NCBI RefSeq assembly: GCF_000014265.1 | Contig: NC_008312.1 | Span: 6,810,001 to 6,842,000, forward strand | DNA length: 32,000 nucleotides | Direction of reading: 5' to 3' | Source of the DNA: Trichodesmium erythraeum IMS101 | Lineage (GTDB): Bacteria; Cyanobacteriota; Cyanobacteriia; Cyanobacteriales; Microcoleaceae | Shown: positions 10,507 through 32,000 of the stretch, in pieces | Numbering within the stretch: position 1 is the first letter of the stretch | Layout of the letters: the number at the start of each line of letters is the position of its first letter | Notes under the pieces: generated by a model | Databases searched by the model: none | Told to the model about the DNA's origin: nothing | What the model saw: only the letters and a program-made list of their open reading frames with translations | Made by a program: the position numbers and the translations under genes

Positions 10507-10626
10507 ATAGTAGCAGTAAATTTTTAATTTTGATCTTAAATCTGATATAGCAATTTCTACTACCCTTCGGACATTCTCGATCTTCTTTTGCCTGAAGCAC
10601 AGAAATGATTTAACTTTTAACTTCAG

Positions 10627-11148: not shown

Positions 11149-11259
11149 AAATTTAACTACTATAGCACTATAAAAAAGTGTTAGGATATTGATAAAATTG
11201 GAGTTCTTGACGACAAATCGTTGGGACTTTAGCTGACAGCGATATGATTTTGAATTTAA

Positions 11260-13144: not shown

Positions 13145-13740
13145 AATAAGAAAGCGGGTCTATTGTCCTGAGAATTATTTTTGAAATCACCAAATTTTAT
13201 TGATCAACCCGGGTTATGGATAAGTCCGAATAATCTCATATTCAGTTGAAGAGTGAACTCTCTACTCCCTACTCCTGTTAAACACTTTTGATAGAGTTGA
13301 TGGGTAATTTCGCTCCCTCACCTCTCCTTCACGTTCCATAGATGAGAGCTTCGCTCCTCATAGGACTGCTGATACTAGATATACGTTTAAGAATTTGCCG
13401 TTCAGAAGACTAGCTCCGACCCTTCTAGCAGTTCCACTAAACTCACCCAAACTTATATAAGTGCGATGGCATAATTTTGATCTGGCTTCAGTGTTTACAC
13501 ATCTACCACTGACCGCAGTCTGTAACTTATCTTCGTACACAATTTAGCCACAAAATACCAAGGAAGCTAAAGCTACTTATACACCTAGTTTTCCCTTGTT
13601 AACCGTAGCATTAAAGTTTCTGTCTACCTTCAAACCGCAGTTGCTACATTCATAAGTTCTCTTATGCAATGGCATTTTCTGTTTAAAACTAAATTGAGAA
13701 AAGATTTGAGAACAGTAAAAGCATATTTAGAAGTAACTCA
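13145..13740 (-). mobile_element. Decayed 3' relic of an IS200/IS605-family tnpB (with the region where an omegaRNA would be encoded)
   Basis: Minus-strand codons 13675->13577 read MPLHKRTYECSNCGLKVDRNFNATVNKGKLGV*. This matches the TnpB C-terminal zinc-ribbon/RuvC-III signature (..R.Y.C..CG...DRD.NAA.N). Flanking frames are broken by stops and shifts, and no N-terminal tnpB part or tnpA is present. Confidence 0.5.
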
Positions 13741-13865
13741 AACTACTCGAACCTAAAAGTTGGGCTCAAAAATTTACGATCCTATTTGTTACTCTACTCC
13801 CAAGCTTTCCTTATTTTTTTGGGGGGAGGTTAAGTTACAGTAACCAGAAAGTAAAAAGCAAAAAC

Positions 13866-14747: not shown

Positions 14748-16230
14748 TTAATGTTTAATACTTAATAGATACTCTCAAAACTTTAAAATTAGGTTTTTTA
14801 GTACTCGCTAAAAGCTGATTACTCTAAGAAAATAATAAAAAGCAAATATCAATTTTAACTACTAATTAATCTCTTGATAATTATTTGGAGAAAATCACAT
14901 TTACTAATCATAATTTTTTGATCACATTATTGCTCCCTTTAAATATAAGATTATTTCATATACTTTTTATTTTGTCAATTATGTAGTAGTTTTTTGATTG
15001 TAGGGAGGGACAAATATATTTTTTTACTTTTAATCAAGTCGGGATTAATTCTTTAGCTTGTAATTGAGTAATTAATTTTACTCATTCTGTTGTATGTGGC
15101 AAAGGAAAGCTTAATCTTTATCATTGTAGGGAAGTTTGAGTAAGTTTTTTTAGAAAAAACTACTCAAAAAAACTACCGACGGCAATGCTAATAATTATAA
15201 TTATTTCTAAATTTATGCGGCTGATAAATAGTTCAGCTTCAGGTAATTATAAATATTTATATACAGGTGAATATAAAGTGATTTTTATAATTATAATTCA
15301 TGACATTTAGGAGTAAAAATGATACTTATATTTCATTGATAAAAAAACTGACTTTTATCGCAATATAAAGCTAACTAGATAGATTGTTTATAACAAAATA
15401 ATTACTAATGTCAGGTTTTTCTATATAAAGATTATGCTAATTTAGAAGTTTTATTAGATGTATTTTGCTTCTAAATTATTTTTCCATTTTGTAAATATAT
15501 TTCTAAGTTTTTAATATTTATTTATTGGCAATAAATTAATTACTGTTAATTATAAAATCTCAAAAAACAAGAGTATAAATTGGTATAATTACAGTCTTTT
15601 TTAATAAACTATATATACATAAAACTTGTAATCAAAACTGTTTTCTGGGAAGATTAATTACTATAGTAATAGAGATTTCCTCTACAAAAAAATCTATTAA
15701 AACTAATTAATAATCTTATTGAGGTACAATAATATTTTCCAGCTTAATATTCTGGCGAATAACATTTTTACTATGTATATAGTTAATAAACTATAGCAAA
15801 CTAATCAGTATTTTCTTAACATAACTATCTGTAGTTGTGTCTTATGTTGCTACTATTTTAGCGAGAGTTTATCCTCTTATCTAAGTAAAATTTATCTGCT
15901 CTATCAGCAAAATTAGCATATAATTTATATATGTGGCTATGAGTATCCCCTAATTCTGCCAAAATGCCTGCTTCTCCTTGAAAGAATTTTGCTGTTTTTT
16001 GGTAAAGATGGAGATTATTGGTCACTACTTTAAGTTGCTTAATTACCCAGGAGCAACCACAAGATATTTGGGTATTTTTACTAAAAAGATTTTCCCAAAT
16101 CTAACACTACTGATGGTTCATACAACTCTTTGCAGGGATTGTTTAAAACTAGAGGTTTAAAATCAATAAATATTACCAATTTTTTATTATTTAAAATCAC
16201 ATACTTATAGGCTATATAACAAATAAAAAA

Positions 16231-17475
16231 ATGAGAAAATTATTAGGGTTAACTTTTTTAACAGTGGCAATATCTGGCTTTTCTACAGTAAAATTTCCTC
16301 TTGGATTAAATAGTTCGATGTCTTTTTTCAGTCTGGTTAATGCTGCTGAAAAAGATGACAAGATTCAGACAAAATATCTTCCCAATAATCAGGATAATAA
16401 CAAAATAAAATTTGGTGGTAAAAAGTTAATTAATCCCATAGTACCTATTTCTGAAAAACCATTAAATTTGCATTACCTTAAATTTGACAATATGACTTTA
16501 AAGTCTTTAGATTTATTTGGTAATGCTTTCTTAAAATTATCTATTTTATCAAAGCAAAACATTTTCAAAGAACTACCAGTCGGTCCGTCTCAGCCTCCCA
16601 CAAGACCGTTAATTGATGTTCGCTTAAATAAAGGTAGTCAAAAAAAAGAAATTAATAAATTACCAGCATCAAATATTCAAGAAGATCCCAAGTTTAAATT
16701 AGTGATGGAGTATGCCATAAAACAGAATCTTGCTCAACTTTCTATGGCAGAAATTATGCAGGCGATCGCTGCTTATTTTATTGATACTCCTTACAAAGCT
16801 GGATTATTAGACCAATCAAATAAAGAGTCCTTAATTATTACTTTGGATGGATTTGATTGTGTATTATTTGTGGAAACTGTATTGGCAATGGCTAGGGGAA
16901 TAGCGATGGAAGATTATTCTTATTTGACCTTTATTAATCATATTAAAAACCAGCGTTACTGGAAGGGTAAAATGGATGGATATTGTAGTCGTTTACATTA
17001 TTTTTCTGAATGGATTGCTGATAATCAAAGGCGTGAAAATGTTATAGATATAGCTATTAAATTAGGTGGAAAAATGGTTAATAAGCAATTATTTTTTATG
17101 AGCAAAAATAGATTAAAGTATCCACAAATTGCTAGGAATGAGGTTAACTATCAGTGTATTGTTAGTATGGAAAATAGTATTAGTAAACTTAAAATAAATT
17201 ACATTCCTTACTATAGAATTAGCAGTATTTATTCTCAGCTAAAACCAGGAGATATTGTTGCTGTAGCGACAGAAATTAATGGATTAGATGTTACTCATAC
17301 AGGCTTAGTTTATCGTAATTCTGATGGTAATATTGGTTTTATTCATGCTTCTCCTGCTGGAAAAGTAACTGTTGCTTATGATTTAGAAAGATATATTTGG
17401 AATGTGGAAAGTGCTATTGGTATTTTAGTGGCAAGACCTGTCGATCCAAGGTTTGAACTTCAGCACTATAATTAA
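16231..17475 (+). CDS. Secreted DUF1460-family protein (N-acetylmuramoyl-L-alanine amidase-like fold)
   Basis: 414 aa with an N-terminal signal peptide. The motifs ..TPYKAGLLDQ...SLIITLDGFDCVLFVETVLAMARG..., ..YCSRLHYFSEWI..N... and ..GDIVAV......LDVTHTGLV.....G...FIHAS.. match my memory of DUF1460. Confidence 0.6.
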   Translation: MRKLLGLTFLTVAISGFSTVKFPLGLNSSMSFFSLVNAAEKDDKIQTKYLPNNQDNNKIKFGGKKLINPIVPISEKPLNLHYLKFDNMTLKSLDLFGNAFLKLSILSKQNIFKELPVGPSQPPTRPLIDVRLNKGSQKKEINKLPASNIQEDPKFKLVMEYAIKQNLAQLSMAEIMQAIAAYFIDTPYKAGLLDQSNKESLIITLDGFDCVLFVETVLAMARGIAMEDYSYLTFINHIKNQRYWKGKMDGYCSRLHYFSEWIADNQRRENVIDIAIKLGGKMVNKQLFFMSKNRLKYPQIARNEVNYQCIVSMENSISKLKINYIPYYRISSIYSQLKPGDIVAVATEINGLDVTHTGLVYRNSDGNIGFIHASPAGKVTVAYDLERYIWNVESAIGILVARPVDPRFELQHYN

Positions 17476-17670
17476 AGATGTTCTAATACATTTATTACTA
17501 TTGGTAGGCTTTTTTCAGATTGCGCTTGCTCATAAGCAAACTCTAAATCAAACATTTAAACTGATATAATATAGTTTTTATGATTTTTTTTTGCTAATAT
17601 TTTCTAAGGCTACAGAGATGACTTTAGTATTATCTGTAATTAGACAAAGATACTACTATAAAGCAAAAAT

Positions 17671-17702
17671 AGGAAGATAAAAAACTTTGTATTTTTCTTC
17701 CT
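17671..17702 (-). terminator. Candidate intrinsic terminator between the convergent DUF1460 and PBP4 genes
   Basis: AGGAAGA at 17671-17677 pairs with TCTTCCT at 17696-17702, extended by A/T pairs. On the minus strand it is followed by ATTTTTGCTT. It lies 28 nt past the PBP4 stop codon. Confidence 0.4.
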
Positions 17703-17729
17703 ACTTCTTATTTCTTCCCTCTTACTTTT

Positions 17730-19058
17730 TTATATAATTTCGCTACGAGAAGTTTTAGTTTTTCTCTGAGGATTAGCTGTTAATTCTGGTGACAATGACT
17801 CAGCATTACCCCACTTTTTCACAATATCTCTTAGTAAAATTTCTTGTTGATTTCTTAATTGAGTTACACTAGGTCCTTTATTCAGAATTGTAAACCAAAT
17901 AACTCCTTTTTCTTTGGTTGGTAAAGCACCTGCTAAACTACTAACATAATTTAGAGTACCAGACTTAACTACTGCAAAATTTGGAAGTTGTTTACGTTCA
18001 TCTAAAATACCTTTATCTTTACCAACTATAACAAACGCATCTGCCACACTCATATTGTATTGCTGAAGATAATTATTAATTGCTAGAAACATTCCTGTAG
18101 CAGCCCTAGGAGAAATACGATTTTCTTCTCCTAAACCAGAGCCATTAATTAATTGAATTTCTTCTTTTGGTACTCCTGTCAATTCAGCAGCTTTTGTTGC
18201 AACTACTTGATAACCTCCTACAGCTTCAGCTAACATATCCGCCATTAAATTATTGCTATATTGATTCATTTTTTTGACTAGTTCTACTAGGGGAAAAGAA
18301 TAATGCCTAATTAATAGTTTTATATTTTCAGGAGTACTGGGAGAAACTTCTACAACACCATCAATTATGACTTGAGGTTTTGGGGTTTCTGGAGGTAAAG
18401 TTTGATATTGAGTTAAAGCTTCTCTCTGCCAAATTTGACTATTTAATCCTTGTTTAAGTAAATTACCAGCAGTCTTAGCATTAGATTCAAAGTTCATATA
18501 AAATTTACCAGTAATAATGAGATTCCCAGTAACTCTTTGAATGCCTATTTTATTTAAAAGATTACCAATAGCGATCGCTTCTTCCCAAACAAAAAATGGA
18601 TCTTCTCCTCCTTGAATAATTAAATCCCCATTTAATACACCATTTTCAATTTTTCCTGTTGTGGCAATTAAGGTAATAAATTGATGGTCAGGATTAAAAG
18701 TTTCTAAGGCAACTAAAGAAGTTGCTACTTTAGTAATTGAAGCTGCTGGCAAAGGAATTTTACCTTGATGATTTGCGAATAAAGTATCATTTGATTGTAT
18801 CCAGACTCCTTGATTTTGTGGAGAAAAACCTTGAGTAGTTAATCTTTTTAAATATGTCTGTACTTCACCAGAGGTTATTGAATTTGAGTTATCTGTAGGT
18901 AATGTTAAGGGTTTTTCAGGAATTTTAATTGATATTTGTGATACTTGTGGAGAAAGACTTATTTTAGGGTTAGGAGATATTATTTCCGGTTTGGGAGATT
19001 GACATCCAGTTAGATATAAAAAAATACAGATAGTAGTTAAAGGTACTTGTTTTTGCAT
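17730..19058 (-). CDS. dacB: D-alanyl-D-alanine carboxypeptidase/endopeptidase, PBP4 (peptidase S13) family, lipoprotein
   Basis: 442 aa with lipobox L-T-G-C. It carries the motifs SxxK (PAASITKVATS), SxN (YSNNLMADMLAE) and a K(T/S)G variant (VKSGTLNYVSSLAG). Confidence 0.75.
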   Translation of the reverse strand: MQKQVPLTTICIFLYLTGCQSPKPEIISPNPKISLSPQVSQISIKIPEKPLTLPTDNSNSITSGEVQTYLKRLTTQGFSPQNQGVWIQSNDTLFANHQGKIPLPAASITKVATSLVALETFNPDHQFITLIATTGKIENGVLNGDLIIQGGEDPFFVWEEAIAIGNLLNKIGIQRVTGNLIITGKFYMNFESNAKTAGNLLKQGLNSQIWQREALTQYQTLPPETPKPQVIIDGVVEVSPSTPENIKLLIRHYSFPLVELVKKMNQYSNNLMADMLAEAVGGYQVVATKAAELTGVPKEEIQLINGSGLGEENRISPRAATGMFLAINNYLQQYNMSVADAFVIVGKDKGILDERKQLPNFAVVKSGTLNYVSSLAGALPTKEKGVIWFTILNKGPSVTQLRNQQEILLRDIVKKWGNAESLSPELTANPQRKTKTSRSEII

Positions 19059-19500
19059 TAGTTTAATTTGAAATTATTATGGTAAAAATTTAGTAAATAA
19101 GTTGTAGGTTCCTTGATTTTAGAAAAGTAGCTAGCTTCTCCCTAGGAGTAACCAAACAGATAATATCATGTATTTAAATTTATCTGATTAGCACTTACAA
19201 ATAAACTCGGTTGATCGAAAAAAAATTGTGAAGCATGAAAAACAATAGTCAGGGCAATAGACCCGATTTATTGTTTAGGTATTTACTCACTTAAGTTATA
19301 TTTATTTTAGTTAGTTATCAAAAACTATAATTTAATAATTTACTTAATTTCACATAAATTTTATCATAAAAATAATATCTAATTTCTGCTAAAGTTAAAA
19401 GAATAAATAGTGGGTTAAACTATAAAAGTTGATCCACTTCTGATTGAATATAAATGGTTTTTGTCAATCTGTGCCAAGGAATCTAAAATCTAATATTATT

Positions 19501-21891
19501 ATGAGTAATAAAATAGGTCAAACAACCCTGTTAAGTAATAATCCTTATATAGAATTAAATAATCAAGGCCAAATTATCACCTTCCAACTGACACAAAAGC
19601 GCCATATATTAGGACGCGATCGCCGCCGCGCCAATCTAGTAGTGCCCTCAAATTGGTTGCCCATCTCTAATTATCATGCCCTCATCAAGAAATCTGACGA
19701 TCGCTACCATATTTATGATGGTGACGGTTATCGACCAAGTACAAACGGATTATTTCTCAACCAGACCCGCATTACTCCTTCAGAAGGTCATCCTTTGGAA
19801 AATGGCATAGAAATCAAAATCGGCCTAGAACCCCAAAATCAAATCTTGCTCAAATACTTTGAACCGAATAATTCTACAGCTTTAACATCTTTACCAAAAA
19901 CGTCCTCAATATCTTTGCAAAATAGATCAGTATTACTTGGTCGGGATCCTGACGCTACCCTAGAGTTGAATGCTCCTATTATATCCCGTCATCATGCCAC
20001 CATTGAGCCCAATGCTCAAGGTGAGTACGTTTTACAGGACTATAGTAGCAACGGTGTGTTTGTTAATGGGGTCCGAGTTCAAAGTACTATTGTTGTGACG
20101 GAGGGAGCAGTAATTAAAATCGGACCTTTTACCCTTATTCGTCGTGGGGATAACTTGGAAGTCCTCGACCCCGGTAACGAAATTCGTCTTGATGCCTATC
20201 GCCTCTACAGAATAGTTAGAGACCAACGGGGGAAAACACAAGTTTTACTAAATGATATCTCCCTTGCGATCGAACCTGGGCAATTTGTTGCTTTAGTCGG
20301 AGGAAGTGGAACTGGTAAGTCGACTTTGATGCGAACATTATTAGGAATAGACCCGACAACTAAAGGCCAAGTTTATATTAATGGTGAAGATTTAAGGAAT
20401 AATTTTAATATTTATCGGACTCAGATAGGTTATGTTCCTCAAGATGATATTATTCATCCCGAATTAACAGTATTGGAAGCTTTAACTTATACTGCAAAAT
20501 TACGCTTACCTCCAGATACTAATGTTCAAGAAGTAGTGGAAAAAACTATCGAACAAATAGAGATGGCAGAGAGAAAAAATATATTAGTTAGTCAGTTAAG
20601 TGGAGGGCAAAGAAAAAGGGTAAGTATTGGCTTAGAATTATTAGCAGATCCCAAATTATTTTTCTTAGATGAACCGACATCTGGACTCGACCCAGGATTA
20701 GATAAAAAAATGATGCAACTATTAAAAAAGTTGGCAAATCAAGGACGAACAATTATTTTAGTTACTCATGCCACAGCTAATATTAGAATTTGCGATCGCA
20801 TAGTTTTTTTAGGTAGAAGTGGGCGTTTATGTTACTTTGGTTCTCCGAAAGAAGCTATGAATTTTTTCTCAATCAATACTGGTGACTTTGCTGATATTTA
20901 CAATGAACTAGAAACCAGTGATGAAAATATTAATGAATGGGTCAATAATTTTCGTCAATCAGAATATTATCGGCGCTATATTTCCAATCATTTGAGTGTT
21001 AATAACTTAAAACCTCCTACTAACTTACCCCCCAAAAAACAACTCCCTTCTTTTGCTAAACAACTATTTATTTTAATTCAACGATATTTAAAATTAATTT
21101 TCCGTGACCCGATTAATTTAGGTTTATCTTTATTAACTGCTCCTATTGGTATTGGTTTAATTTTATTTGCAGTTAGAGATAAAAATCCATTAATTGGCGA
21201 CCCAGAACCTACTTTAGCCCCTTTAGCTTTGCGAGTATTATTTGTATTTACTTGTGCCTGTTTATGGGTTGGTCTTTCGAGTTCTCTGCAAGAAATAGTC
21301 AAAGAATCAGCTATTTATATTCGAGAAAGATTGGTAAATTTAGGATTATTTGCTTATCTAGCTTCAAAAGTCATAGTTTTAGGATTATTAGCAATTTTTC
21401 AAACTTTATTAATAGCAGGAGTAATTATCTTGGGATTTGAAAGCCCCCAGCCAGAAATAATTTCATGGTCAATGGGAGTTAGTATTACTACTTTTTTAAC
21501 TTTAATAAGTTGTATTAGTATGGGATTAATGATTTCTTCTATTGTTAAAAACGCTTCTCAAGCTAATAGTGCTTTACCCTTAATATTGCTACCTCAGATT
21601 ATTTTTTCTGGAGTTTTATTTGAGATGAAAGGTATAGCTAGTAAATTTTCTTGGGTAATGTTAAGTCGTTGGTCTGTAGCTGCTTATGGGGCTCTAGTCA
21701 ATGTCAATAAAATGGTTCCAGAAGCAACTAAATTACCAGATGGTAGTAGGGTTTCTTTACCATTTTCTGGTTCAGATATTTATAACCTTAACTGGGGAAA
21801 TTTAGGTTTAAGTTGGGGAGTTTTATGTTTACATTCACTGATTTATTTAGGTTTAACCATTTGGTTTAAAAAACAGAAAGATATTATATAA
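19501..21891 (+). CDS. Two-FHA-domain ABC exporter (NBD + ABC-2 permease fused), Rv1747-like architecture
   Basis: I prefer the ATG at 19501 over the TTG at 19444. There are two FHA-like modules (..LGRD....L......ISNYHA.I......Y.I.D.....STNGLFLN..R.. and ..LLGRD.....L....ISRHHATIE......Y.LQDYSSNGVFVNG.R). ABC motifs are Walker A GGSGTGKST, signature LSGGQRKRV, Walker B LFFLDEPTSGLD and H-loop VTHA. The C-terminal part is hydrophobic with about 6 TM segments. Confidence 0.85.
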   Translation: MSNKIGQTTLLSNNPYIELNNQGQIITFQLTQKRHILGRDRRRANLVVPSNWLPISNYHALIKKSDDRYHIYDGDGYRPSTNGLFLNQTRITPSEGHPLENGIEIKIGLEPQNQILLKYFEPNNSTALTSLPKTSSISLQNRSVLLGRDPDATLELNAPIISRHHATIEPNAQGEYVLQDYSSNGVFVNGVRVQSTIVVTEGAVIKIGPFTLIRRGDNLEVLDPGNEIRLDAYRLYRIVRDQRGKTQVLLNDISLAIEPGQFVALVGGSGTGKSTLMRTLLGIDPTTKGQVYINGEDLRNNFNIYRTQIGYVPQDDIIHPELTVLEALTYTAKLRLPPDTNVQEVVEKTIEQIEMAERKNILVSQLSGGQRKRVSIGLELLADPKLFFLDEPTSGLDPGLDKKMMQLLKKLANQGRTIILVTHATANIRICDRIVFLGRSGRLCYFGSPKEAMNFFSINTGDFADIYNELETSDENINEWVNNFRQSEYYRRYISNHLSVNNLKPPTNLPPKKQLPSFAKQLFILIQRYLKLIFRDPINLGLSLLTAPIGIGLILFAVRDKNPLIGDPEPTLAPLALRVLFVFTCACLWVGLSSSLQEIVKESAIYIRERLVNLGLFAYLASKVIVLGLLAIFQTLLIAGVIILGFESPQPEIISWSMGVSITTFLTLISCISMGLMISSIVKNASQANSALPLILLPQIIFSGVLFEMKGIASKFSWVMLSRWSVAAYGALVNVNKMVPEATKLPDGSRVSLPFSGSDIYNLNWGNLGLSWGVLCLHSLIYLGLTIWFKKQKDII

Positions 21892-22621: not shown

Positions 22622-22865
22622 CTGCCCCTAGTTATTCTGCTATTTTATGATAAAATAACTTAAACCATTAAATATTATCAAAAGTTTATGGCTGTAACAA
22701 TCCCTATCCTTAATCCTTTCTTAACAAATAATTTCGCCAAGTTAATCTTGCTGTGCATTGTTAACAATTTAGTATCGGCTATTCAATATTCATAAATTTA
22801 TAACCAACTGTTAAAACTTAAAAAAACGATCAAGATTATTTATTGGAGTAGGAGGTTTTTGAGAG

Positions 22866-25800
22866 ATGAAAAAAATCTTGTATATACATATAGGAACTGG
22901 TAAAACAGGAACCAGTTCAATACAAAATTTTTTATCTGAGAATCAAAAAAATGGCAGGTTATCAAAGCACTTTAATACAAGGTATTGTTTCTCGGGTCGT
23001 CCCAATATTCATAATATATTGTTGTGTAAAAATTACCAGAGGGGAAATGAGAAGACTCAAGAGTTGATAGATGCAAAGATTCGTGAATTGAGAAAGGAAA
23101 TTTATCAAAGTTCAGAACAGTTATTTATTATTAGTTCTGAGTATTTTCCCGGAAACACTCAAGATGAGATTCATGAATTAGTAAATACTGTAAGTGATAT
23201 ATGTCAAGTTAAAATTATTGTTTATTTAAGAAGGCAAGATGACTTTTTATGGTCTTGGTATACTCAACTTGTCAAGACAACTAATATATTTCTTGATATA
23301 TACAAATTAAAAGATAAATTGTATAAAGGCCCGCAGCAGGTTTTCAACTATGAAACAAGTTTAAGAAAATGGGAGAATATCGTTGGGAAAGAAAACATAT
23401 TAGTCAATATTTACGATAGGAATAATTTTAAGGAAAATTCAATATACTTTGATTTTATTCACAATTTAAATATTGACTTAGATCTGAAAAAAATGATAGT
23501 TCCAGAAGAGGTAAATCTAAGCCTTCAATGTGAACAAATATGTCTGATACGAACACTTATTCCTTATGTGAGTGAATGGAATGACGAACAACTAAAAATG
23601 TTGCAAAAACCACTTAATATCCCGTTTTTGTATACCAAAAGTCTCCTTTCCCCAAGAGAACGAAAAGAAATTTTAAATGACTTTAGACAACACAATGAAT
23701 TTGTGGCTAGACGATATCTTAATCAAGAAAATTTGTTTGATGAAAATATTGAAGATGAAGACACATGGAGAGAACCAAATATATTTAGTTCTGGATATTT
23801 TGAAAAATATATTGATTATATCAAAACCGAAAAAAAGACGTTGTTTGAATTACTGCAACCGATATTAAAGAATGTCAACAGAATGAAAATCAAAACAGTG
23901 AGAAATATGTTATTAGTTAATAACATATTTATAGTTGATTGGACGGAGAAGGCGGGTTGCACCATAGTATGTAAAATGTTTTTTGATGTTATGGGGATAC
24001 TCCAAGAAGCCTTAGACTATAATAGTTGGATACATAATTATCGACAAGATAAATTTTATGAAAAATTTGGTAAAGTAACGGAGGATATGCTTTCTGGGGA
24101 CAAGTTTGTGAAAATGAAATTTGTCAGAAATCCATATACCCGTGCAGTTAGTTCTTATTTTGCTGCAAATGAAAACAATAAACAATATTTAAAAGGATAT
24201 GAACATCTTGATTTGTCATTTTATGATTTCTTGCTTTTAGTTAAGCAGAAAAAAATAGTTAATGATCATTGGAGAACTCAATATCAAGAAATTGAATCCA
24301 GATTTAATTTTGATGAAATAATTAAAATTGAAAATATTGAACAAGAGGTAAAAAGACTGAATCAAAAATATAGTCTTAATTTACAACTCCATACACATTC
24401 TAGCCACCATCATAAAAAAGATAAAAATAAAAGTGAATTTGTTGGCAGAAAAAAGTATAGTGAGTTGGAAATTTCTGGTACTATTCCAGATTATAGAAAC
24501 TTCTATGATGATGAAACTAAGTTACTTGTGAGTGAAATTTATGAAAAAGATCTTAAAACTTATAAGTATACATTCGATCTGGAAAAAAATCAGGAAAGAA
24601 TTAAAGCAGAGAATACGGATAAAGATAAAAAAATGAAACACAATATCAATTACATTACAATTTGGGAGAACGAATGGAATTCGGTTTATGCTGACGAATT
24701 TCTAATTAAAGCTGCCAATTCTGATATTAATACTGTTGCCTTTGACATGCGGTGGCACAAGCACGAAACAAATGAAGGAAATTTTGATTTTTCTCATACT
24801 CAAGACAGATGCGATAAACTCATTGAGCATGGGTTCAAACTTATGCCATTAATTTCTATCTTTTATTGTCCGAATTGGGTTCATGAAAAATATCCTGATA
24901 TAGTTGAGTTGAACGAAACCTTCGGTGCCATAGGCTCGGGTCATAAAGGTGTAAGTTCTGCATACGAAAAGTCATTGCCCTTGGCACTCAATTTTATAGA
25001 TAAATGCATTGATGCACTGGAATGCTATAGACAGGATATAACAGCAATAAGTGTTTCGTGGAATAATGAACACGAAACAAAATTTACTCAAACACATGAT
25101 TTGTTTAGACCCTATGAAAAGTCTGCTCAAGAAAAATTCAGATTATTTATTGAGAAGAAAAATAGTTCAATAAAATATTGGAACGACAGGTGGAATACTT
25201 CCTTTGATTGTTTTGCAGAAGTAACTTTACCCACATTACGATGTGAGAACAAAAAACAAATTGAGCAATTTCAACTCCAGGGGCAATTTATATTTGATTT
25301 TTACGCATTTAGAAGATTTTTGCTTGTTAACATATATCAAGGTTGTTGTGAACGAATAAAATCTCATCAGTATAAAACATGGCTGCATTTTGGTGAAATA
25401 TTTACCTGTATTGATGCAATATATCAAGGTGATGTTGTGTTTGATATGATCACAGAAAATTGGTTGGATATCGTGGTTATAGATTCAAATTTATCTAAGA
25501 TAGGGGTTGAAACAAATGACCCGTTCGTTTCTTATGTAATTGTTTCTGCTTGTCAGCAATACGATAAACCAGTGATATTTGAAGTTGCGGTGGAGCGCGA
25601 TAAATCAATTGAGGTGTATAAAGAAAGTATTCTTTGGGCACAAAAAAAGAATGTAGACGGGCTAGGACATACAAATTTTATGAACCGGAAAAAATTTCAT
25701 TGTCTTTTTCAGAATTCATCTCTTGCCGCAGGTATGGATGGTGTTGAGTCAACAAAACATTTGCTTTTGATACATCCTATTCGTGGATGTGGTGTATTGA

Positions 25801-26132
25801 GGCAAAGACAACATATTGTGGGAGCAATATCAGTAGATCCTGTTCAAGATTATTTGATGGGTGAAGTTAAGCACTGGTATGACAGAGGATTTAATGTAGA
25901 TATTATCGGAGATCCTTTACTATTAAATAAGATTAATCAAGATGTTTATAATGAAATAGTTTATTTGGAACCATTGGCGTTATTGTCAGTTGACAAGAAG
26001 CATATTTCAGATTTTGTGGAAAGGTTGCCGAGTGACAAACCGTATTATCATAAGAAGTTGGATCGAGCATTCTTTGAACATCAAACCGGGTTTGATGGTG
26101 AACCTTTGGAATTTTTATCTTTTGAAGAATAA
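22866..26132 (+). CDS. Three-module protein: P-loop sulfotransferase-like N-domain + Sulfotransfer_2-like domain + GH42-like (clan GH-A) TIM-barrel domain
   Basis: 1088 aa. A GGAGTAGGAGG Shine-Dalgarno sits at 22845-22855. Residues 10-17 are GTGKTGTS and 119-132 are VYLRRQDDFLWSWY. Residues 359-366 are WTEKAGCT, 420-431 VRNPYTRAVSSY and 467-472 DHWRTQ. From about residue 595, ITIWENEW....AFDMRWHKHETNEGNFDFSHTQDRCDKLIEHGFKLMPLISIFYCPNWVHEKYPD...ISVSWNNEHE resembles the GH42 N-terminal barrel, including an NE acid/base motif. Confidence 0.7.
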   Translation: MKKILYIHIGTGKTGTSSIQNFLSENQKNGRLSKHFNTRYCFSGRPNIHNILLCKNYQRGNEKTQELIDAKIRELRKEIYQSSEQLFIISSEYFPGNTQDEIHELVNTVSDICQVKIIVYLRRQDDFLWSWYTQLVKTTNIFLDIYKLKDKLYKGPQQVFNYETSLRKWENIVGKENILVNIYDRNNFKENSIYFDFIHNLNIDLDLKKMIVPEEVNLSLQCEQICLIRTLIPYVSEWNDEQLKMLQKPLNIPFLYTKSLLSPRERKEILNDFRQHNEFVARRYLNQENLFDENIEDEDTWREPNIFSSGYFEKYIDYIKTEKKTLFELLQPILKNVNRMKIKTVRNMLLVNNIFIVDWTEKAGCTIVCKMFFDVMGILQEALDYNSWIHNYRQDKFYEKFGKVTEDMLSGDKFVKMKFVRNPYTRAVSSYFAANENNKQYLKGYEHLDLSFYDFLLLVKQKKIVNDHWRTQYQEIESRFNFDEIIKIENIEQEVKRLNQKYSLNLQLHTHSSHHHKKDKNKSEFVGRKKYSELEISGTIPDYRNFYDDETKLLVSEIYEKDLKTYKYTFDLEKNQERIKAENTDKDKKMKHNINYITIWENEWNSVYADEFLIKAANSDINTVAFDMRWHKHETNEGNFDFSHTQDRCDKLIEHGFKLMPLISIFYCPNWVHEKYPDIVELNETFGAIGSGHKGVSSAYEKSLPLALNFIDKCIDALECYRQDITAISVSWNNEHETKFTQTHDLFRPYEKSAQEKFRLFIEKKNSSIKYWNDRWNTSFDCFAEVTLPTLRCENKKQIEQFQLQGQFIFDFYAFRRFLLVNIYQGCCERIKSHQYKTWLHFGEIFTCIDAIYQGDVVFDMITENWLDIVVIDSNLSKIGVETNDPFVSYVIVSACQQYDKPVIFEVAVERDKSIEVYKESILWAQKKNVDGLGHTNFMNRKKFHCLFQNSSLAAGMDGVESTKHLLLIHPIRGCGVLRQRQHIVGAISVDPVQDYLMGEVKHWYDRGFNVDIIGDPLLLNKINQDVYNEIVYLEPLALLSVDKKHISDFVERLPSDKPYYHKKLDRAFFEHQTGFDGEPLEFLSFEE

Positions 26133-26137
26133 TCATT

Positions 26138-26815
26138 ATGTATTTTATTATTTATTCAGAAAGAAAAATAATATTTGGATGGTCAGCAAAATGTGGTTGT
26201 ACTCATTTTAAAGGAATTGTTTGGAATCTTTTATACGATGAAGAATTAAAAGGCGCAAGAGTACATGAAAAAAAGGCTAGAGACAAGCTTCCAAGTGATA
26301 TCGAAAATTATATTTCCGTTTTAGTCATACGAAATTCTTATGAAAGATTAGTTTCAGGTTTTTTGGATAAATACAAACCACGTGGACAATACAGGAATAT
26401 ATGGAAATGCGAACCATTGACCTTTACCAAGTTTGTAGATGAATTGATTAAACCAAATTGGAAGGTTATAGAACAACATCATTTTACTCCACAAATAACT
26501 GAAGATTTCAATGCAGATAAATTATTAAAAAGCAAAGGTCTAAAAATTTTTGACGTTGTTGATATTGATTATAATTTTCTTGAGAAACTATACAACAAAA
26601 AAATATCAGATTTTTCAATAAAACAAAAACATCAAAATTATCGCAAAGCAACGGTTGAAATTAAACAACCAATATATGACTTGAATATTGATGATTTTTT
26701 TGATAATTATGTACCAACACAATTTTTTTATAGCGAGGACATTAAAAATAAAGTTTATAATTTTTATATTGACGATTTTACATTTTTCAAAAATAACGGA
26801 TTTGATTATATATAA
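26138..26815 (+). CDS. Sulfotransferase (carbohydrate sulfotransferase / Sulfotransfer_2-like)
   Basis: 225 aa, starting 5 nt after the previous stop codon. It carries WSAKCGCT (aa 15-22, 5'-PSB-like), IRNSYERLVSGF (3'-PB-like) and HHFTPQ. Confidence 0.65.
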   Translation: MYFIIYSERKIIFGWSAKCGCTHFKGIVWNLLYDEELKGARVHEKKARDKLPSDIENYISVLVIRNSYERLVSGFLDKYKPRGQYRNIWKCEPLTFTKFVDELIKPNWKVIEQHHFTPQITEDFNADKLLKSKGLKIFDVVDIDYNFLEKLYNKKISDFSIKQKHQNYRKATVEIKQPIYDLNIDDFFDNYVPTQFFYSEDIKNKVYNFYIDDFTFFKNNGFDYI

Positions 26816-26851
26816 TTTACATTTAGAATTTTTATCTTTTGAGGAAGAATA

Positions 26852-27598
26852 ATGGACGCATACGTATCACATGACAAAAAAATTGTCGCATTTTGGACTC
26901 CGAAATGTGCCTGCACTGCGGTTGTGTTATGGTTTTATTATAATGTACTTGGACATAAGCACGCCAAACAGGATCCTAGAATTTTACTGCATAAAAATAA
27001 GCATCTCATTTCTTTTGAAGATGGAAAGCATTTGGTTGAAAATGAAAAATACACAGCCATAGGGTTTGTCCGTGATCCAATAACAAGAAGTGCATCGGCA
27101 TTTTTAAGTAAGTTTTTATATCGTTCCTGTGGTCAAACATTGCTAACATTTGATTCACTTGAACCTTTTGCCAAGAATTTATTTAAACAATACAAGCAAC
27201 ACAATAAAATAAAAGACAAGGAATATTTTGGATTTTCCTTTTATGATTATTTAAATATAGTTTACCATTTACAAAATACAGGTGCAAGGATTAATCCTCA
27301 TTGGAATGTACAATTTTCCGGCGACATTGACTTTGATTTTCTTGTCAGGGTAGAAAGCTTTACTAAAGACTTGAAAAATGTTAATCAAACTCTTGGTCTT
27401 GGAAATTATATTCCTCGAGAGGCAAATAAACTGAAACCTTCGGGATGCCATAAATGTGAAAAAATGGTTGATAAAGAACCGTCCGTAAAACTTTTACAAG
27501 ATAAGTTGATTGTTGACAAGAAGAGTATATTATCAGATGAGTGTATAGGTTTGATTAAGAAGATTTATTTAATTGATTTTGAAAAGTTTAATTATTGA
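26852..27598 (+). CDS. Sulfotransferase (carbohydrate sulfotransferase / Sulfotransfer_2-like)
   Basis: 248 aa, after a 36-nt gap, with a GAGGAAG Shine-Dalgarno. It carries WTPKCACT (aa 15-22), VRDPITRSASAF and PHWNVQ. Confidence 0.65.
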   Translation: MDAYVSHDKKIVAFWTPKCACTAVVLWFYYNVLGHKHAKQDPRILLHKNKHLISFEDGKHLVENEKYTAIGFVRDPITRSASAFLSKFLYRSCGQTLLTFDSLEPFAKNLFKQYKQHNKIKDKEYFGFSFYDYLNIVYHLQNTGARINPHWNVQFSGDIDFDFLVRVESFTKDLKNVNQTLGLGNYIPREANKLKPSGCHKCEKMVDKEPSVKLLQDKLIVDKKSILSDECIGLIKKIYLIDFEKFNY

Positions 27599-27616
27599 TT
27601 CAAGAGAACATTAAAA

Positions 27617-28732
27617 ATGATGAAATACATACTAACTAATATACCAAAATATATTATTGACTCAAAATATGACGATCTACTCTCCCCTGAAATGCCATCT
27701 GAATCTATTGTCAAAAGATTTGGAAATGCAGGAAATTGCATGTTTTGGGAGTCTACAAAAAAAATCATAAACAATCAAACAAATTTGGAACTTTTGAATT
27801 TATTACATGATTTTAGAGAAAATAAAAATTATTACAAAAATAAAATTGAGATGGTTGTCATTGTAATGGCAAATGGCATCAATATCTTACCTAGGTCTTT
27901 TAACATTTTTAATGTTTTTTTTAATTCAATCAAGGATCTCAATTGTAAAAAATATTTGTTTTCCATTGGTGCTCAATCAAGCACACTTGAATTCAGAAAA
28001 TTTTCCGATCAAGAGAAAAAAATATACCTTAATTTTCTTTCTTGTTTTGAATATGCATTCCTAAGAGGTCAATACACATATGACTTGCTTAAATACAACG
28101 ATATCCCGTTAACGAATTGTGAAGTTGTTGGATGTCCTTCAATTTTATTAGAACCAGTTGATACGGACGAAATGAAGATTAAATTTGAAAAACTCAAGAA
28201 ACAAAACGTAGATGAAATTAAAATAGGAATAAATTATCCAGGCCATCATCAGCACCCTCAATTGCGCAAGCATTTTGTCTGTATTATGCATGATCCAAAT
28301 GTTTACACTTTAGCAGTTAATGAGCCAAGAATGTACGACTTTATCAACAAAGGTAAATCATTTCCATTACTTAAATATTCCGATGAAAAAAATATTGAAA
28401 AAAATAGAAACAACTTTATTTTTAGTGGTAATGTTTTTGAATCAATAGAGTTTTTCAGAAATAATGCCAACCTAATGATAGGAACTCGAATTCACGGAAC
28501 CATTTTGGGTTTAATGGCAGGACTACCCTCTATGTGTTTAGTTATAGATAGCAGAACCTATGAATTATGTGAACAAATGAGAATTCCTTACATCAATTGT
28601 ATTGAAAAAACAATAGAATTTCAGACTAAAGAGGAATTACTTCAAATATTCTTAAATAATTTTGATGCTACCAAATTAGATGGTCTTAAAGAAGTTATTG
28701 ATAAAAACAAAAATAAATATTTAATCTCATAA
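27617..28732 (+). CDS. Polysaccharide pyruvyl transferase family protein (CsaB/WcaK-like)
   Basis: 371 aa, after an 18-nt gap. The N-terminal ..FGNAGNCMF.. and C-terminal ..MIGTRIHGTILGLMAGLPSMCLVIDSRTYELCEQMRIPYI.. resemble the PS_pyruv_trans signature (..R.H..I.A...G.P.......K......). Confidence 0.55.
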   Translation: MMKYILTNIPKYIIDSKYDDLLSPEMPSESIVKRFGNAGNCMFWESTKKIINNQTNLELLNLLHDFRENKNYYKNKIEMVVIVMANGINILPRSFNIFNVFFNSIKDLNCKKYLFSIGAQSSTLEFRKFSDQEKKIYLNFLSCFEYAFLRGQYTYDLLKYNDIPLTNCEVVGCPSILLEPVDTDEMKIKFEKLKKQNVDEIKIGINYPGHHQHPQLRKHFVCIMHDPNVYTLAVNEPRMYDFINKGKSFPLLKYSDEKNIEKNRNNFIFSGNVFESIEFFRNNANLMIGTRIHGTILGLMAGLPSMCLVIDSRTYELCEQMRIPYINCIEKTIEFQTKEELLQIFLNNFDATKLDGLKEVIDKNKNKYLIS

Positions 28733-28909: not shown

Positions 28910-28941
28910 CTAAACCCTAACTTTTCTAAACCCTAACTTTT
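28910..28941. repeat. Perfect 16-nt tandem duplication CTAAACCCTAACTTTT x2
   Basis: 28910-28925 equals 28926-28941. It lies in the 503-bp convergent intergenic spacer. Confidence 0.85.
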
Positions 28942-29235: not shown

Positions 29236-32000
29236 CTACTTCAAAGCTGCCATATAGCCATGTATTCTTGCCTCATTATTTTTTTGTCTCATTATAATTA
29301 CTTTTTCATCTAAATTTTTATCCCTTCCCCACTGGCTATCATGTTCATTTAGCAACTTTATTTGTTCGTAAATGTTGTCTTTATTAACCAACTCATACCC
29401 AAAAGTTTTTTGGAAAAATGAAGCCTCCTCCAGACTGCGACTGAAAATCTCCTCCGGCAAAAAATTATGTGAATGATACACCACTGCATCTCTCCCATAC
29501 ACCTTTCCATACCCCGCCTCAATAACTTGCCAAGCCCAAGCCTGATCCTCTCCAAAACTAATCTCTGGATATGGAATTTTTTCCCAAACACATCGACGCA
29601 TACAGGAATTATTGTCGCTGTAAAAATGAAGTTTTTGTTTCCAGGACAAATCTTTGTTCTTATATAGCTTGAAATTTGTATTCTTATCAAGGTACACTGG
29701 TAGTTCATCAAAAATCTGAAAATGGTTTTCCAGGTCTCGCTTAGTAAAAGCATCTGCATCAGGATATGCTAAATGCTTGCCAAATATCCCTGCCGCATTA
29801 GGAAAATTTTCTAGTGTAGTCACCAGATAATATAACCAATTTTTATCCACTGGCAGAGCGTCATGGGTCAAAAAAGCAATATTTTCCCCTTCAGACAAAG
29901 ATGCCCCCAAGTTCCTAGTCTTACCATGCTGAAACTCGGACTTAGGTATCTCGTAAAGTCTAATTACTGGGTCTGCCTTCATCCATTCTAAGGTTCCATC
30001 TGTTGAGCCACTATCAATAACTACAATCTCAAACAACCACGGTGTGACTTGCTCCTTCACCCTTTCTATTACCTGTTTAAGCAACTCACCACCGTTCAAG
30101 GTTGGTATAAAAACAGAAGCTTTTGGTTTAGAGGGTTTTGCCTTAACAACTATGGAATTTGGCTTTTTTTCAAGAAGCCTATTTTGAATAAAACCGTTTA
30201 TCTTAGCTACTTCTTGTTCCCATGTAAACTGTTTTACCCATTCTGTTGCTAAATGTGCTTGTTCTTCACGGGGAGTTTTTGAGTCCATTAACTCTACAAT
30301 AGCATCAGTGATATCCAGAGGAGCCGGACCGGCTAACCTTACTACCCCTGGGGGAAATACAACTTCCGTACTTTCACCAGCCAGTTCTATCACTGGTAAA
30401 CCACAAGCCATCATCTCTTGAGGAACTAATGAATAATTAGTTGATGAAAATACAATACCAATGTCACTATCTTGGTAAAGTTCCCTTAGCTGTTGGGCAG
30501 TTAAAATTCCATGAGACTTAAACTGAAAAGGTGCACGATCAAAATTAGTATTCCCCCCAAAGAAATGCACTTCAAAATCTTCTCTATAAGTTGCTAACTT
30601 TTCTAATGCCAGCAACCCCAATTCAACAGCTCTTCTCTCTGTGCCACGACGATAATAAAAGGCAATTTTGACAACATCATTAACTTTTTCATCTGTTTGA
30701 GGAAAATAAACCGAAGTATCCACTGCTAGCCAAAACTTACAAGCCCAAGAACCGTATTTTTCAGACATTATTTTTTCTAGCCACGGCCCTGCACAAATGC
30801 AATCTAGTTTATAACTATAAGTCAAATCAGCCAAAAGTGCTTTTGTTCCTTGGGGAGAAAAGAACCGCTCGTAGTCTTGAACAAAGTAAAATCTGTTGTG
30901 GAAATTAGGATTGGAGACAGCAAACTGGACCGAACCCCAATCTGTGGCAATAATAACATCTCCTGCTGCACTCTCAAACTCTTCCCTGCCGATAATAAAC
31001 TTGACTTCTACCTGTAAAGTTTGAAAATACTTTAATATAGTCTCTAATGCCTCTGTTTCAAACTTATGAACAACTGGTTGGTATATCCAGAGAGTATTGT
31101 GATGACCGAGTTGACCTAGTAATTTGATAAATCGGAATATTGTCATGTGTCCCCCAGCACCGGGAGAAAAGTCACAAGTCACCCAATGTAGATTAAGACA
31201 ATTTAAGTCGAAATTGTGGGAGGCGGATAGTTCTGTGTATGAGTAGTCTATAAAAGCTCGCTTATCAGCTTCGTGTACTAACCGAACAAACCGATCTGTA
31301 TTATTTATTGTCCCTATCTCTGACTTGGAAAGTGCACTTGCCACACTTTTTGCTTTTGGCAAATTAGCCATGTCAGGATTTAGTTCTGTCGCCTTTTGAT
31401 AAGCTTCTTCAGCCTCCCCATCTTCCTCCAACTGCCATAAAACATCTCCCAACTGCTGCCAAACTATAGCCGACCTAGGATATAACTCCACAGCTTGACG
31501 CAGCTCAATCACAGCCTCCTCCCAATGCTCCAATTGCATCAAAGCATACCCAAGCTGGTGCCGAACTGGTGCGAACTTAGGATCAACCTCTACCACCAAA
31601 CGATACTCAACAATAGCCTCCTCCCATTTTTTTAACTGTAGGAAAGCATACCCCAGAGAATGGCGCACCTCCGCCCCATCAAAACCAAAATCTATCCCTC
31701 GTCGATACTCAACAACAGCCTCCTCCCATTGTTTTAACTGTCCCAAAGCCTTCCCTAAACCAAAGTACACCTCACCAGACTCCCCAGAGAAAGCTACAGC
31801 TTGACGATATAAAGCCACCGCTTCACTCCATCTTCCTAACTTACCTAAAGCTACTGCCCAACTGATACAGCAGTTAACCCGATATGGATAAATTTCCCAA
31901 CTCTGAGAATATAACTTTATTGCATCAGACCATTGCTCTTGACCAGACTTAGCTTCTGCCAAATAAAAATAACCCTCTGCCTGTAGAGCTCTTTCATATA
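29236..32000 (-). CDS. TPR-repeat protein fused to a WsaF-like GT4 glycosyltransferase and a GT2 glycosyltransferase (N-terminus outside the window)
   Basis: The frame stays open past the TTG at 31962 to the window edge (..YERALQAEGYFYL-AEAKSG..). TPR-like repeats of ~34 aa (..WEEA..EYR......P......LGY....L..) cover about the first 200 aa. Next comes HWVTCDFSPGAGGHMTIFRFIKLLGQLGH (WsaF-type GT signature), then a GT4 C-half (..VFSSTNYSLVPQEMMACGLPVIE). The C-terminal part is a GT2 module (ASVFIPTLNGGELLKQVIERVKEQ....EIVVIDSGSTDGT...FLTHDALP). Confidence 0.75.
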   Translation of the reverse strand, partial: YERALQAEGYFYLAEAKSGQEQWSDAIKLYSQSWEIYPYRVNCCISWAVALGKLGRWSEAVALYRQAVAFSGESGEVYFGLGKALGQLKQWEEAVVEYRRGIDFGFDGAEVRHSLGYAFLQLKKWEEAIVEYRLVVEVDPKFAPVRHQLGYALMQLEHWEEAVIELRQAVELYPRSAIVWQQLGDVLWQLEEDGEAEEAYQKATELNPDMANLPKAKSVASALSKSEIGTINNTDRFVRLVHEADKRAFIDYSYTELSASHNFDLNCLNLHWVTCDFSPGAGGHMTIFRFIKLLGQLGHHNTLWIYQPVVHKFETEALETILKYFQTLQVEVKFIIGREEFESAAGDVIIATDWGSVQFAVSNPNFHNRFYFVQDYERFFSPQGTKALLADLTYSYKLDCICAGPWLEKIMSEKYGSWACKFWLAVDTSVYFPQTDEKVNDVVKIAFYYRRGTERRAVELGLLALEKLATYREDFEVHFFGGNTNFDRAPFQFKSHGILTAQQLRELYQDSDIGIVFSSTNYSLVPQEMMACGLPVIELAGESTEVVFPPGVVRLAGPAPLDITDAIVELMDSKTPREEQAHLATEWVKQFTWEQEVAKINGFIQNRLLEKKPNSIVVKAKPSKPKASVFIPTLNGGELLKQVIERVKEQVTPWLFEIVVIDSGSTDGTLEWMKADPVIRLYEIPKSEFQHGKTRNLGASLSEGENIAFLTHDALPVDKNWLYYLVTTLENFPNAAGIFGKHLAYPDADAFTKRDLENHFQIFDELPVYLDKNTNFKLYKNKDLSWKQKLHFYSDNNSCMRRCVWEKIPYPEISFGEDQAWAWQVIEAGYGKVYGRDAVVYHSHNFLPEEIFSRSLEEASFFQKTFGYELVNKDNIYEQIKLLNEHDSQWGRDKNLDEKVIIMRQKNNEARIHGYMAALK

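Follow-up and report, generated by a model that had tools for sequence, protein, structure and literature searches.

A cassette of four co-directional genes at positions 22866–28732 of a 32,000-nucleotide stretch of the Trichodesmium erythraeum IMS101 genome (hereafter the window) was analyzed, and its genes probably form an operon whose products modify, in the cytoplasm, a glycan destined for the cell surface or the extracellular space. In the pathway that we infer, including its donors, substrate, and order of steps, four modules (modules 1 and 2 of ORF1, ORF2, and ORF3) would each use 3′-phosphoadenosine-5′-phosphosulfate (PAPS) to sulfate a different hydroxyl group or sugar before the glycan, lipid-linked or as a growing chain, leaves the cytoplasmic side of the membrane. 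ORF4 would add a pyruvate ketal with phosphoenolpyruvate as the donor, and the GH42-like third module of ORF1, a putative retaining glycosidase or transglycosylase, may trim or remodel the glycan together with the neighboring Sulfotransfer_2 domain. The backbone would probably be supplied by a convergently encoded TPR-WsaF-like GT4-GT2 enzyme of the rhamnan or S-layer-glycan type, a type of transferase that is typical of ABC-transporter-dependent pathways, and export may run through an upstream ABC-2 transporter. The enzymatic part of this interpretation had already been put forward in a first-pass annotation made from the sequence, and it was supported by Pfam, fold, and context data, whereas the accompanying statements on composition-based transfer and on missing partner genes were not upheld.

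Operon layout and gene identity

All four open reading frames lie on the forward strand. ORF1 (22866–26132, 1088 aa) holds three modules, ORF2 (26138–26815, 225 aa) and ORF3 (26852–27598, 248 aa) are single-domain Sulfotransfer_2 enzymes, and ORF4 (27617–28732, 371 aa) is a polysaccharide pyruvyl (ketal) transferase. These boundaries and the short gaps of 5, 36, and 18 nt agreed with the first-pass annotation, and every motif string quoted there was recovered in the translations. The ribosome-binding site claimed for the cassette was found as well, as the Shine-Dalgarno-like sequence GGAGTAGGAGG can be read at 22846–22856 of the forward strand, 9 nt before the ATG of ORF1. Promoter and terminator scans of the cassette gave signals not above the shuffled expectation; the three terminator-like sites, no more than shuffles give, fall within ORFs and none of them in the inter-gene gaps.

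Neither a signal peptide nor a transmembrane segment was detected in any of the four cassette proteins. The chemistry of the cassette would therefore be cytoplasmic, a location that fits the use of PAPS and phosphoenolpyruvate as well as an ABC-transporter-dependent route. ORF1 corresponds to Tery_4433 of T. erythraeum IMS101 (100% identity), and numerous marine samples yielded a total of 22 contigs that encode the 1088-aa protein. In the source databases it is labelled either as a hypothetical protein or as a glycoside hydrolase.

Sulfotransfer_2 modules and pyruvyl transferase

Three of the four sulfotransferase modules were matched by the Sulfotransfer_2 profile (PF03567), for which the gathering score is 22 bits. 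Module 2 of ORF1 (23886–24617, forward strand, approximately aa 341–584) contains WTEKAGCT, an invariant His, VRNPYTRAVSSY, and HWRTQ, and reached 36.6 bits (E = 7.1e-9) when aa 341–600 were scanned alone; it clears the cutoff only if scanned separately from full-length ORF1. In the Pfam scan, ORF2 reached 33.3 bits (E = 7.2e-8) and ORF3 59.1 bits (E = 9.2e-16), the latter with the entire profile covered, and the matches of all three modules span nearly the entire profile. All three exceed the gathering score, and the family assignment made from motifs is supported. A search of ORF3 against the PDB by sequence returned kinase noise only, with E-values above 0.2.

The three cassette modules were further aligned with four relatives from related loci. 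Across these seven sequences, K22, R81, R86, and S89 are invariant, representing the lysine of the 5′-phosphosulfate binding loop (5′-PSB) and the R..R..S of the second motif in the right order, while identity to module 2 was 21–26%, barring two close homologues of that module. An invariant histidine (H50) sits between the two PAPS motifs in 7/7 sequences, and the H-x-x-x-Q motif is likewise present in all seven. The ordered motif triad reported earlier was confirmed by this alignment, including the invariant Lys of W-[ST]-x-K-x-[GA]-C-T. The mapping of such motifs to the 5′-PSB and the 3′-phosphate binding element (3′-PB) is established knowledge of the Sulfotransfer_2 family. H50 presumably occupies the position of the catalytic His of heparan sulfate 2-O-sulfotransferase, which we take as a lead only.

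The cassette modules share the PF03567 profile with the HNK-1ST/CHST enzymes and the heparan sulfate 2-O- and 6-O-sulfotransferases, and they keep the 5′-PSB Lys and the R-[DN]-P..R..S of the 3′-PB. In contrast to the HNK-1ST/CHST type, they are bacterial, soluble, about 225–250 aa long, and without a type II membrane anchor.

ORF4 matched the pyruvyl transferase profile PF04230 (PS_pyruv_trans) from position 1 to 279 of 280 (E = 6.4e-21, 75.9 bits vs a gathering score of 25.3), and the earlier assignment of the last gene was thus borne out end to end. In this full-length match it resembles the pyruvyl transferases of the CsaB, WcaK, EpsO, and Pvg1 type. It is not a CsaB equivalog, scoring 22.1 bits against TIGR03609 with its cutoff of 213.1. 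Genes of pyruvyl transferases also recur beside homologues of both module 1 and the GH42-like module.

A predicted sulfotransferase family outside Pfam

Module 1 of ORF1 (22866–23825, forward strand, aa 1–320) is a predicted sulfotransferase-fold domain for which profile scans of the module itself gave no Pfam or NCBIfam match. The first-pass annotation had counted it as a fourth sulfotransferase module because of the strings GTGKTGTS and YLRRQDDF, which are located at aa 10–17 and aa 120–127 of ORF1. This call is now well supported for the modelled domain, because the conserved residues, the transitive homology, the predicted fold, and the genomic neighborhood of relatives all point to a sulfotransferase. 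We propose KTGTS (K13) as the 5′-PSB and R122...S130 as the 3′-PB. In a family alignment of 58 sequences, H8, G10, K13, T14, E92, R122, and D125 are invariant, while G15 and S130 are near-invariant. The resulting pattern is a K-T-G-T-S loop and R-x7-S, the latter with the 8-residue spacing from R to S that is found in the 3′-PB. The invariant E92 follows a beta-strand, a position that may be comparable to that of the Glu base used by 3-OST and NDST.

In total, 437 homologues of module 1 were detected, mostly single-domain proteins of 320–400 aa. Members were found in at least 351 species genomes of many phyla, ranging from Lachnospiraceae to Thiomargarita. Homology to described sulfotransferases is transitive, as 7/58 relatives matched PF00685 (Sulfotransfer_1) with a best E-value of 3.6e-8. 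The AlphaFold2 (AF2) model of module 1 reached a pLDDT of 94.3, and 8 of its top 9 Foldseek matches in the PDB are sulfotransferases (E = 1.2e-5 to 5e-4), with 3rnl, 3-OST-5, NDST1, and TPST as the best. Module 1 resembles its best structural matches, 3-OST, the NDST domain, and the Alicyclobacillus sulfotransferase 3rnl (E = 1e-5 to 5e-4), in the K-x-G-T-[ST] loop and the 8-residue R...S spacing. However, identity to them is only 12–16% with TM-scores of 0.45–0.55, and module 1 belongs to a family of its own that is captured by no Pfam or NCBIfam model.

A different P-loop-like nucleotide-dependent enzyme, for example a kinase, would agree with the absence of a direct Pfam or PDB sequence match and with the PFKFB kinase domains, adenylate kinases, and zeta toxins among the Foldseek matches (E ~1e-3). 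We regard this as very unlikely, however, given the predominance of sulfotransferases among the top structural matches, the PF00685 matches of relatives, and the PAPS-synthesis genes and the 3′-phosphoadenosine-5′-phosphate phosphatase gene cysQ that adjoin relatives. A Walker-A kinase in particular was rejected, as the K-T-G-T-S loop is without GxxxxGK[ST] spacing.

The surroundings of module 1 relatives were recorded by a Pfam census of 123 neighboring ORFs from 23 diverse loci, which replaced a tblastn search of the window proteins against 79 module 1 loci that was too insensitive for partner families. The census revealed dTDP-rhamnose and GDP-sugar enzymes, GT2, GT4, and GT92 glycosyltransferases, and methyltransferases near the relatives, along with adenosine 5′-phosphosulfate kinase in three neighbors, CysD in two, and CysN in two. 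A module 1 relative lies directly after CysD-CysNC in a Bacteroidales metagenome-assembled genome (MAG) and a Parablautia genome (loci L018 and L024), and a Pseudomonas MAG (L083) shows the order GT2, module 1 homologue, CysQ-CysC fusion, and TauE. The nearest relative from a genome (42% identity) stems from Ca. Spongiihabitans, a sponge-symbiont gammaproteobacterium, where a GT2 and a fusion of RgpF, WsaF_C, and pyruvyl transferase domains are encoded in the vicinity of the homologue (L012/L013). No cyanobacterium was found among the top 80 relatives.

GH42-like module and its sulfotransferase partner

Module 3 of ORF1 (24618–26132, forward strand, aa 585–1088) consists of a GH42-like TIM barrel and an alpha/beta domain. 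Pfam matched aa 604–840 to PF02449 (GH42) with E = 1.9e-13 and also to PF01373 (GH14). The PF02449 match scored 48–51 bits vs a cutoff of 21 and covers profile positions 7–233 of 376 only. The further GH42 domains PF08532 and PF08533 were undetected by Pfam in this module; the protein ends after the B-like domain, and the C-terminal beta-sandwich domain C is absent. Of the three-domain architecture of GH42, domains A and B were matched by fold. The AF2 model of the module reached a pLDDT of 76, and Foldseek returned GH42 beta-galactosidases, the GH35 beta-1,2-glucosyltransferase IaSGT, and GH14 beta-amylases with E-values of ~1e-16 over ~520 columns. The barrel proposed in the first-pass annotation was thereby supported by both Pfam and fold.

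Judged by its residues, the domain looks catalytically intact. The subfamily profile places an invariant W-N-N-E on the N-N-E acid/base of GH42, which corresponds to N734-E735 of ORF1 (N150-E151 of the module) in the motif WNNEHE. About 175 residues downstream, the invariant E322 and E326 of the module (E906 and E910 of ORF1; FEVAVER) lie on or just past beta-7, and either of them is a candidate nucleophile. In clan GH-A, the N-E acid/base follows beta-4 and the Glu nucleophile beta-7. E260 (LHFGE) was considered as well and set aside, as it follows the fifth strand only 109 residues past the acid/base. E322/E326 were preferred over E260 because of their location at strand seven and their distance of ~175 residues, near the 171 residues (E141 to E312) of the Thermus A4 enzyme. 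The module shares the barrel and the alpha/beta domain with the GH42 beta-galactosidases of Thermus A4 (1kwg) and Bifidobacterium (Bga42A, 4uoq) and with IaSGT (7vkw), and the aligned NNE acid/base adds to this likeness, as would the candidate Glu on or after beta-7. Unlike these enzymes, to which identity is 12–15%, it is without the beta-sandwich, would be cytoplasmic, and has its associations with a sulfotransferase, esterase, or pyruvyl transferase and not with sugar catabolism.

The clade is rare. A word-indexed search returned 8 relatives, and 91 were found at E ≤ 1e-3 among 1.84 billion representatives. Searches of 185,579 species genomes and of a collection of viral contigs with the GH42-like alignment gave pattern matches only; IMS101 itself was not returned either, so that its region seems to be masked in the genome set. 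Metagenome contigs yielded only 3 short loci with the same alignment, the plasmid collection one weak match to a canonical beta-galactosidase, and the phage collection none. A fold search of the model against viral structures (BFVD) returned generic TIM-barrel hydrolases only.

Parts of the cassette occur together repeatedly in unrelated genomes, and the GH42-like relatives show this as well. P0003/L007 (58% identity) combines the GH42-like domain with Sulfotransfer_2 in one protein by a different linker; a Sulfotransfer_2 gene precedes the GH42-like gene in L092 and follows it in L093 and L009. In P0144, a metagenomic clade member of 911 aa (47% identity), the fusion partner is a carbohydrate esterase domain of the SASA/SGNH type, and in L011 the GH42-like gene is flanked by a WsaF_C glycosyltransferase gene on one side and a pyruvyl transferase gene on the other. 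These arrangements bear on the possibility that the module is an ordinary catabolic enzyme of the beta-galactosidase type, fused by an accidental deletion and without a tailoring role. The Pfam and fold matches do point to GH42 beta-galactosidases, and the IMS101 fusion stems from a 685-bp difference to L096, a variant with a GH gene of its own. However, the link of the clade to Sulfotransfer_2 at loci of 38–66% identity, by independent fusion (P0003) or adjacency on either side, the fusion to the SASA esterase, the flanking genes in L011, the missing domain C, and the distance from canonical GH42 sequences make a catabolic role decidedly unlikely.

A bolder idea, which we hold to be unlikely, is that the GH42-like and Sulfotransfer_2 domains form a conserved two-enzyme unit of an undescribed cytoplasmic type of glycan assembly or editing, in which a retaining glycosidase or transglycosylase would act in step with sulfation, with module 1 in parallel representing a large unmodelled family of bacterial sulfotransferases. 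The unit may have been fused independently in at least two lineages, with adjacent genes in others, and may sometimes carry additional modules of the esterase, methyltransferase, or pyruvyl transferase type. One possibility would be that it transfers or trims pre-sulfated sugars, in place of a synthesis by Leloir glycosyltransferases alone.

Structural variants and related cassettes

Two close variants from other samples showed that the cassette differs in its module content. L096, with 98% nucleotide identity, has 685 extra bases (L096:264–948) at window position 24619. The insert encodes an in-frame S-adenosylmethionine methyltransferase domain (Methyltransf_23, E = 1.8e-9) and a stop codon, after which the GH42-like gene starts separately. 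Because of this arrangement, the three-module ORF1 of IMS101 is read as probably a recent deletion-fusion. L095 (96% identity) has position 24152 joined to 26019 and lacks the last part of module 2 together with the GH module; ORF2 is missing as well. The ORF2 loss has its breakpoints at the two copies of a 35-nt junction repeat. Copy 1 (26102–26136, forward strand, repeat family D2) covers the end of ORF1 just before ORF2, and copy 2 (26819–26853), 86% identical to copy 1, the junction of ORF2 and ORF3. As the breakpoints of the ORF2 deletion coincide with the repeat copies, the sequences suggest that recombination between them reshuffles the cassette. The next gene after the truncated ORF1 of this variant (L095:1650–2102) is a Sulfotransfer_3 gene (E = 1.3e-9) in place of ORF2 and ORF3, and by this comparison sulfotransferase types appear to be swapped at the position after ORF1. 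Taken together, the rearrangements in L095 and L096 indicate a modular cassette that is being reshuffled within Trichodesmium populations.

A more distant version was found in L009 (13.5 kb) and L010, where a contig of only 20% GC holds a scrambled, partly degraded cassette. It contains an ORF2 homologue (48% identity, in L009), the remnant of a pyruvyl transferase, a GH42-like gene (38.5%), frameshifted Sulfotransfer_2 fragments, and a Sulfotransfer_3 gene, with GT92 and ubiquitin-hydrolase (UCH) genes alongside. Its source may be a giant virus or a eukaryote-associated entity.

Composition and horizontal transfer

The first-pass annotation had regarded the cassette as horizontally acquired because of its high AT content, and its spot GC counts (17/60 and 12/60 in the cassette, 24/60 and 31/60 elsewhere) were all reproduced. 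Over the full length, the GC content of the cassette is 0.302 vs 0.383 for the other window genes. At third codon positions (GC3), however, the values are 0.25 vs 0.278, and the synonymous-usage distance of the cassette (0.106) is within that of random native gene pools (0.112 ± 0.025). The FYMINK content of the cassette proteins is 0.37–0.45 vs mostly 0.23–0.30 elsewhere, and the proteins are poor in GARP residues. The low GC content is thus due to codon positions 1 and 2 of genes for FYMINK-rich proteins and not to synonymous sites. The octamer HIP1 (GCGATCGC) is absent from the cassette, as had been stated, but with a Poisson P of 0.19 for zero sites in 5.9 kb this is not significant. All 9 HIP1 sites of the window lie within 5500–20800, and the last 11.2 kb have none (Poisson P ~0.04), a region that includes a glycosyltransferase gene of 40% GC.

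No tRNA, tRNA-like element, RNA-family match, or flanking repeat was found around the cassette, and Pfam scans of the window genes gave no integrase or transposase domains. The order of EVE gene, ORF1, and ORF2 is kept in the variants of 96–98% identity from other samples. With native GC3 and synonymous codon usage and no island hallmarks, the compositional argument for horizontal acquisition fails.

A recently acquired foreign island from a compositionally different donor would still account for the low overall GC content with the high FYMINK content, for the patchy distribution of the GH42-like clade (91 relatives in total and none found in the 185,579 species genomes, with the reservation given above for IMS101), for a nearest module 1 relative that is gammaproteobacterial with no cyanobacterium in the top 80, and for related cassettes in hosts of 20–35% GC. 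Weighed against the native-like GC3 and synonymous distance, the similar GC content of the native neighbors g9, g10, and g12, the missing tRNA, flanking repeats, and mobility domains, the shared synteny of the variants, and the non-significant HIP1 absence, such a recent island is unlikely. An older lateral spread is compatible with the patchiness, with nearest relatives from outside the cyanobacteria, and with the AT-rich genomes of the hosts that carry related cassettes.

Neighboring genes and the likely substrate

Convergent with ORF4, the reverse strand encodes the TPR-WsaF-like GT4-GT2 glycosyltransferase (29236–32000), the 5′ end of which runs off the window. Pfam identified TPR repeats, WsaF_C at aa 584–678, and Glycos_transf_2 at aa 768–944, and in L001 the protein has 1061 aa. 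WsaF_C/RgpF glycosyltransferases recur beside homologous cassettes, and by this analogy the enzyme is proposed as the partner that probably makes the backbone. A fused FHA-ABC ATPase-ABC-2 membrane protein (19444–21891, forward strand; FHA, ABC_tran, and ABC2_membrane in Pfam, 50 strongly hydrophobic windows in hydropathy analysis) is encoded 1 kb upstream and is a candidate exporter. An EVE-domain gene lies between it and the cassette, and the involvement of this protein in the pathway is speculative. The earlier statement that the window has no polymerase or export genes overlooked these two candidates.

Several findings weigh against a glycan-tailoring operon with these partners. The links to the convergent glycosyltransferase and the ABC-2 transporter are drawn from proximity and analogy only, and Pfam scans of the 17 window genes of at least 100 aa found no Wzx, Wzy, PCP, or OPX genes and no sugar-nucleotide or PAPS genes. 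For module 1, a single-sequence search of the PDB gave a noise match only and a profile search nothing, so that the fold was assigned with AF2 and Foldseek instead, where the TM-scores were modest (0.36–0.55) and P-loop kinases ranked close behind the sulfotransferases. In the model of the GH42-like module, the pLDDT drops below 50 at residues 151–162 around the acid/base loop, and the nucleophile candidates E910 and E906 were chosen by invariance and strand order and not by structural superposition. Glycan genes are missing from the surroundings of some module 1 homologues (L018 and L024), and substrates may therefore differ within this family. Finally, a literature search with the locus tags Tery_4433–4436 found no paper naming them and no biochemical or expression data.

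Some of these points would also suit the same enzymes acting on a non-polysaccharide substrate, i.e., a glycan of the protein-linked or S-layer type, a glycolipid, or a glycosylated natural product. WsaF is a rhamnosyltransferase family of S-layer glycoprotein glycans and the partner gene carries WsaF_C, the window scans show no polymerase or flippase genes, and PAPS genes accompany the module 1 homologues of L018 and L024 in the manner of BT_0411–0416 from Bacteroides thetaiotaomicron (PMC9417993). In that cluster, which sulfates cholesterol (PMC9417993), the sulfotransferase gene adjoins the sulfate-activation genes, a layout that the Bacteroidales relative of module 1 resembles. The Trichodesmium cassette, in contrast, has no PAPS genes alongside, and the likeness concerns the gene layout of relatives only. 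Against such a substrate, PS_pyruv_trans and the GH42-like domain act on carbohydrates, glycosyltransferases and sugar-nucleotide enzymes abound in most module 1 neighborhoods, and the partner glycosyltransferase combines two GT domains with TPR, as polymerizing enzymes do. A non-polysaccharide substrate is accordingly a possible but rather improbable alternative to the cell-surface or extracellular glycan proposed above.

The remaining window holds a few features of separate interest. The 16-mer CTAAACCCTAACTTTT is perfectly duplicated in tandem (28910–28941) in the intergenic region between ORF4 and the convergent glycosyltransferase. Two tandem paralogous genes for DctP-type TRAP solute-binding proteins (5319–6425 and 6642–7727, each E ~1e-62) follow a gene for a 915-aa FG-GAP repeat protein (1765–4512), and a 572-aa ORF, also ahead of this pair (8–1726), has no Pfam match. 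The most AT-rich part of the window (14500–16200, 24–26% GC, no ORF of at least 100 aa) is located between a CbiX gene and the gene of an AmiA-like amidase.

Comparison with known systems and significance

Maeda and colleagues surveyed PF00685, PF03567, and PF13469 across cyanobacterial genomes in 2021 and found the sulfotransferase genes mostly in polysaccharide clusters of the Wzx/Wzy or ABC type (PMC8205485). For T. erythraeum IMS101, 30 sulfotransferase genes were counted, with the speculation that they make metal-binding sulfated polysaccharides and a suggested role in iron adsorption (PMC8205485). Because cyanobacterial polysaccharide clusters with sulfotransferases were reported in that work, the concept is already known. 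The label "undescribed" from the first-pass annotation therefore holds for the cassette, since no paper was found that names Tery_4433–4436, but not for the class, which has been published (PMC8205485).

With the xss (synechan) cluster of Synechocystis sp. PCC 6803, the cassette shares a cyanobacterial host, PAPS-type sulfotransferases among glycosyltransferases, and a sulfated extracellular glycan as the proposed product. In contrast to xss, no Wzx, Wzy, or PCP/OPX genes and no XssQRS-type regulator are among the Pfam matches of the window, and a stretch of 5.9 kb houses four sulfotransferase modules, including one whose family is unmodelled by Pfam. The GH42-like domain and the pyruvyl transferase are not mentioned in the synechan paper (PMC8205485), and the WsaF/RgpF type of the partner glycosyltransferase suggests an ABC-transporter-dependent route, unlike xss. 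New in the present work are the module 1 family, the GH42-like/sulfotransferase unit, the partnership with a pyruvyl transferase, and the structural variants.

Trichodesmium is a globally important nitrogen fixer, and its colonies, dust and iron capture, and sinking rely on surface and exuded polymers. To our knowledge, no Trichodesmium sulfotransferase locus has been dissected so far. The cassette offers a compact unit with four predicted sulfation activities, one predicted pyruvylation, one predicted glycosidase, and a likely backbone glycosyltransferase alongside. If it is merely another tailoring operon, the gain is a better annotation of four genes. The steady coupling of the GH42-like clade to sulfotransferases, however, hints at a specific and so far unstudied step in the synthesis of sulfated glycans. 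Adding the module 1 family to domain libraries would raise bacterial sulfotransferase counts, and if the bolder idea of a large unmodelled family is true, sulfated glycans or metabolites would be far more common outside the cyanobacteria than currently stated.

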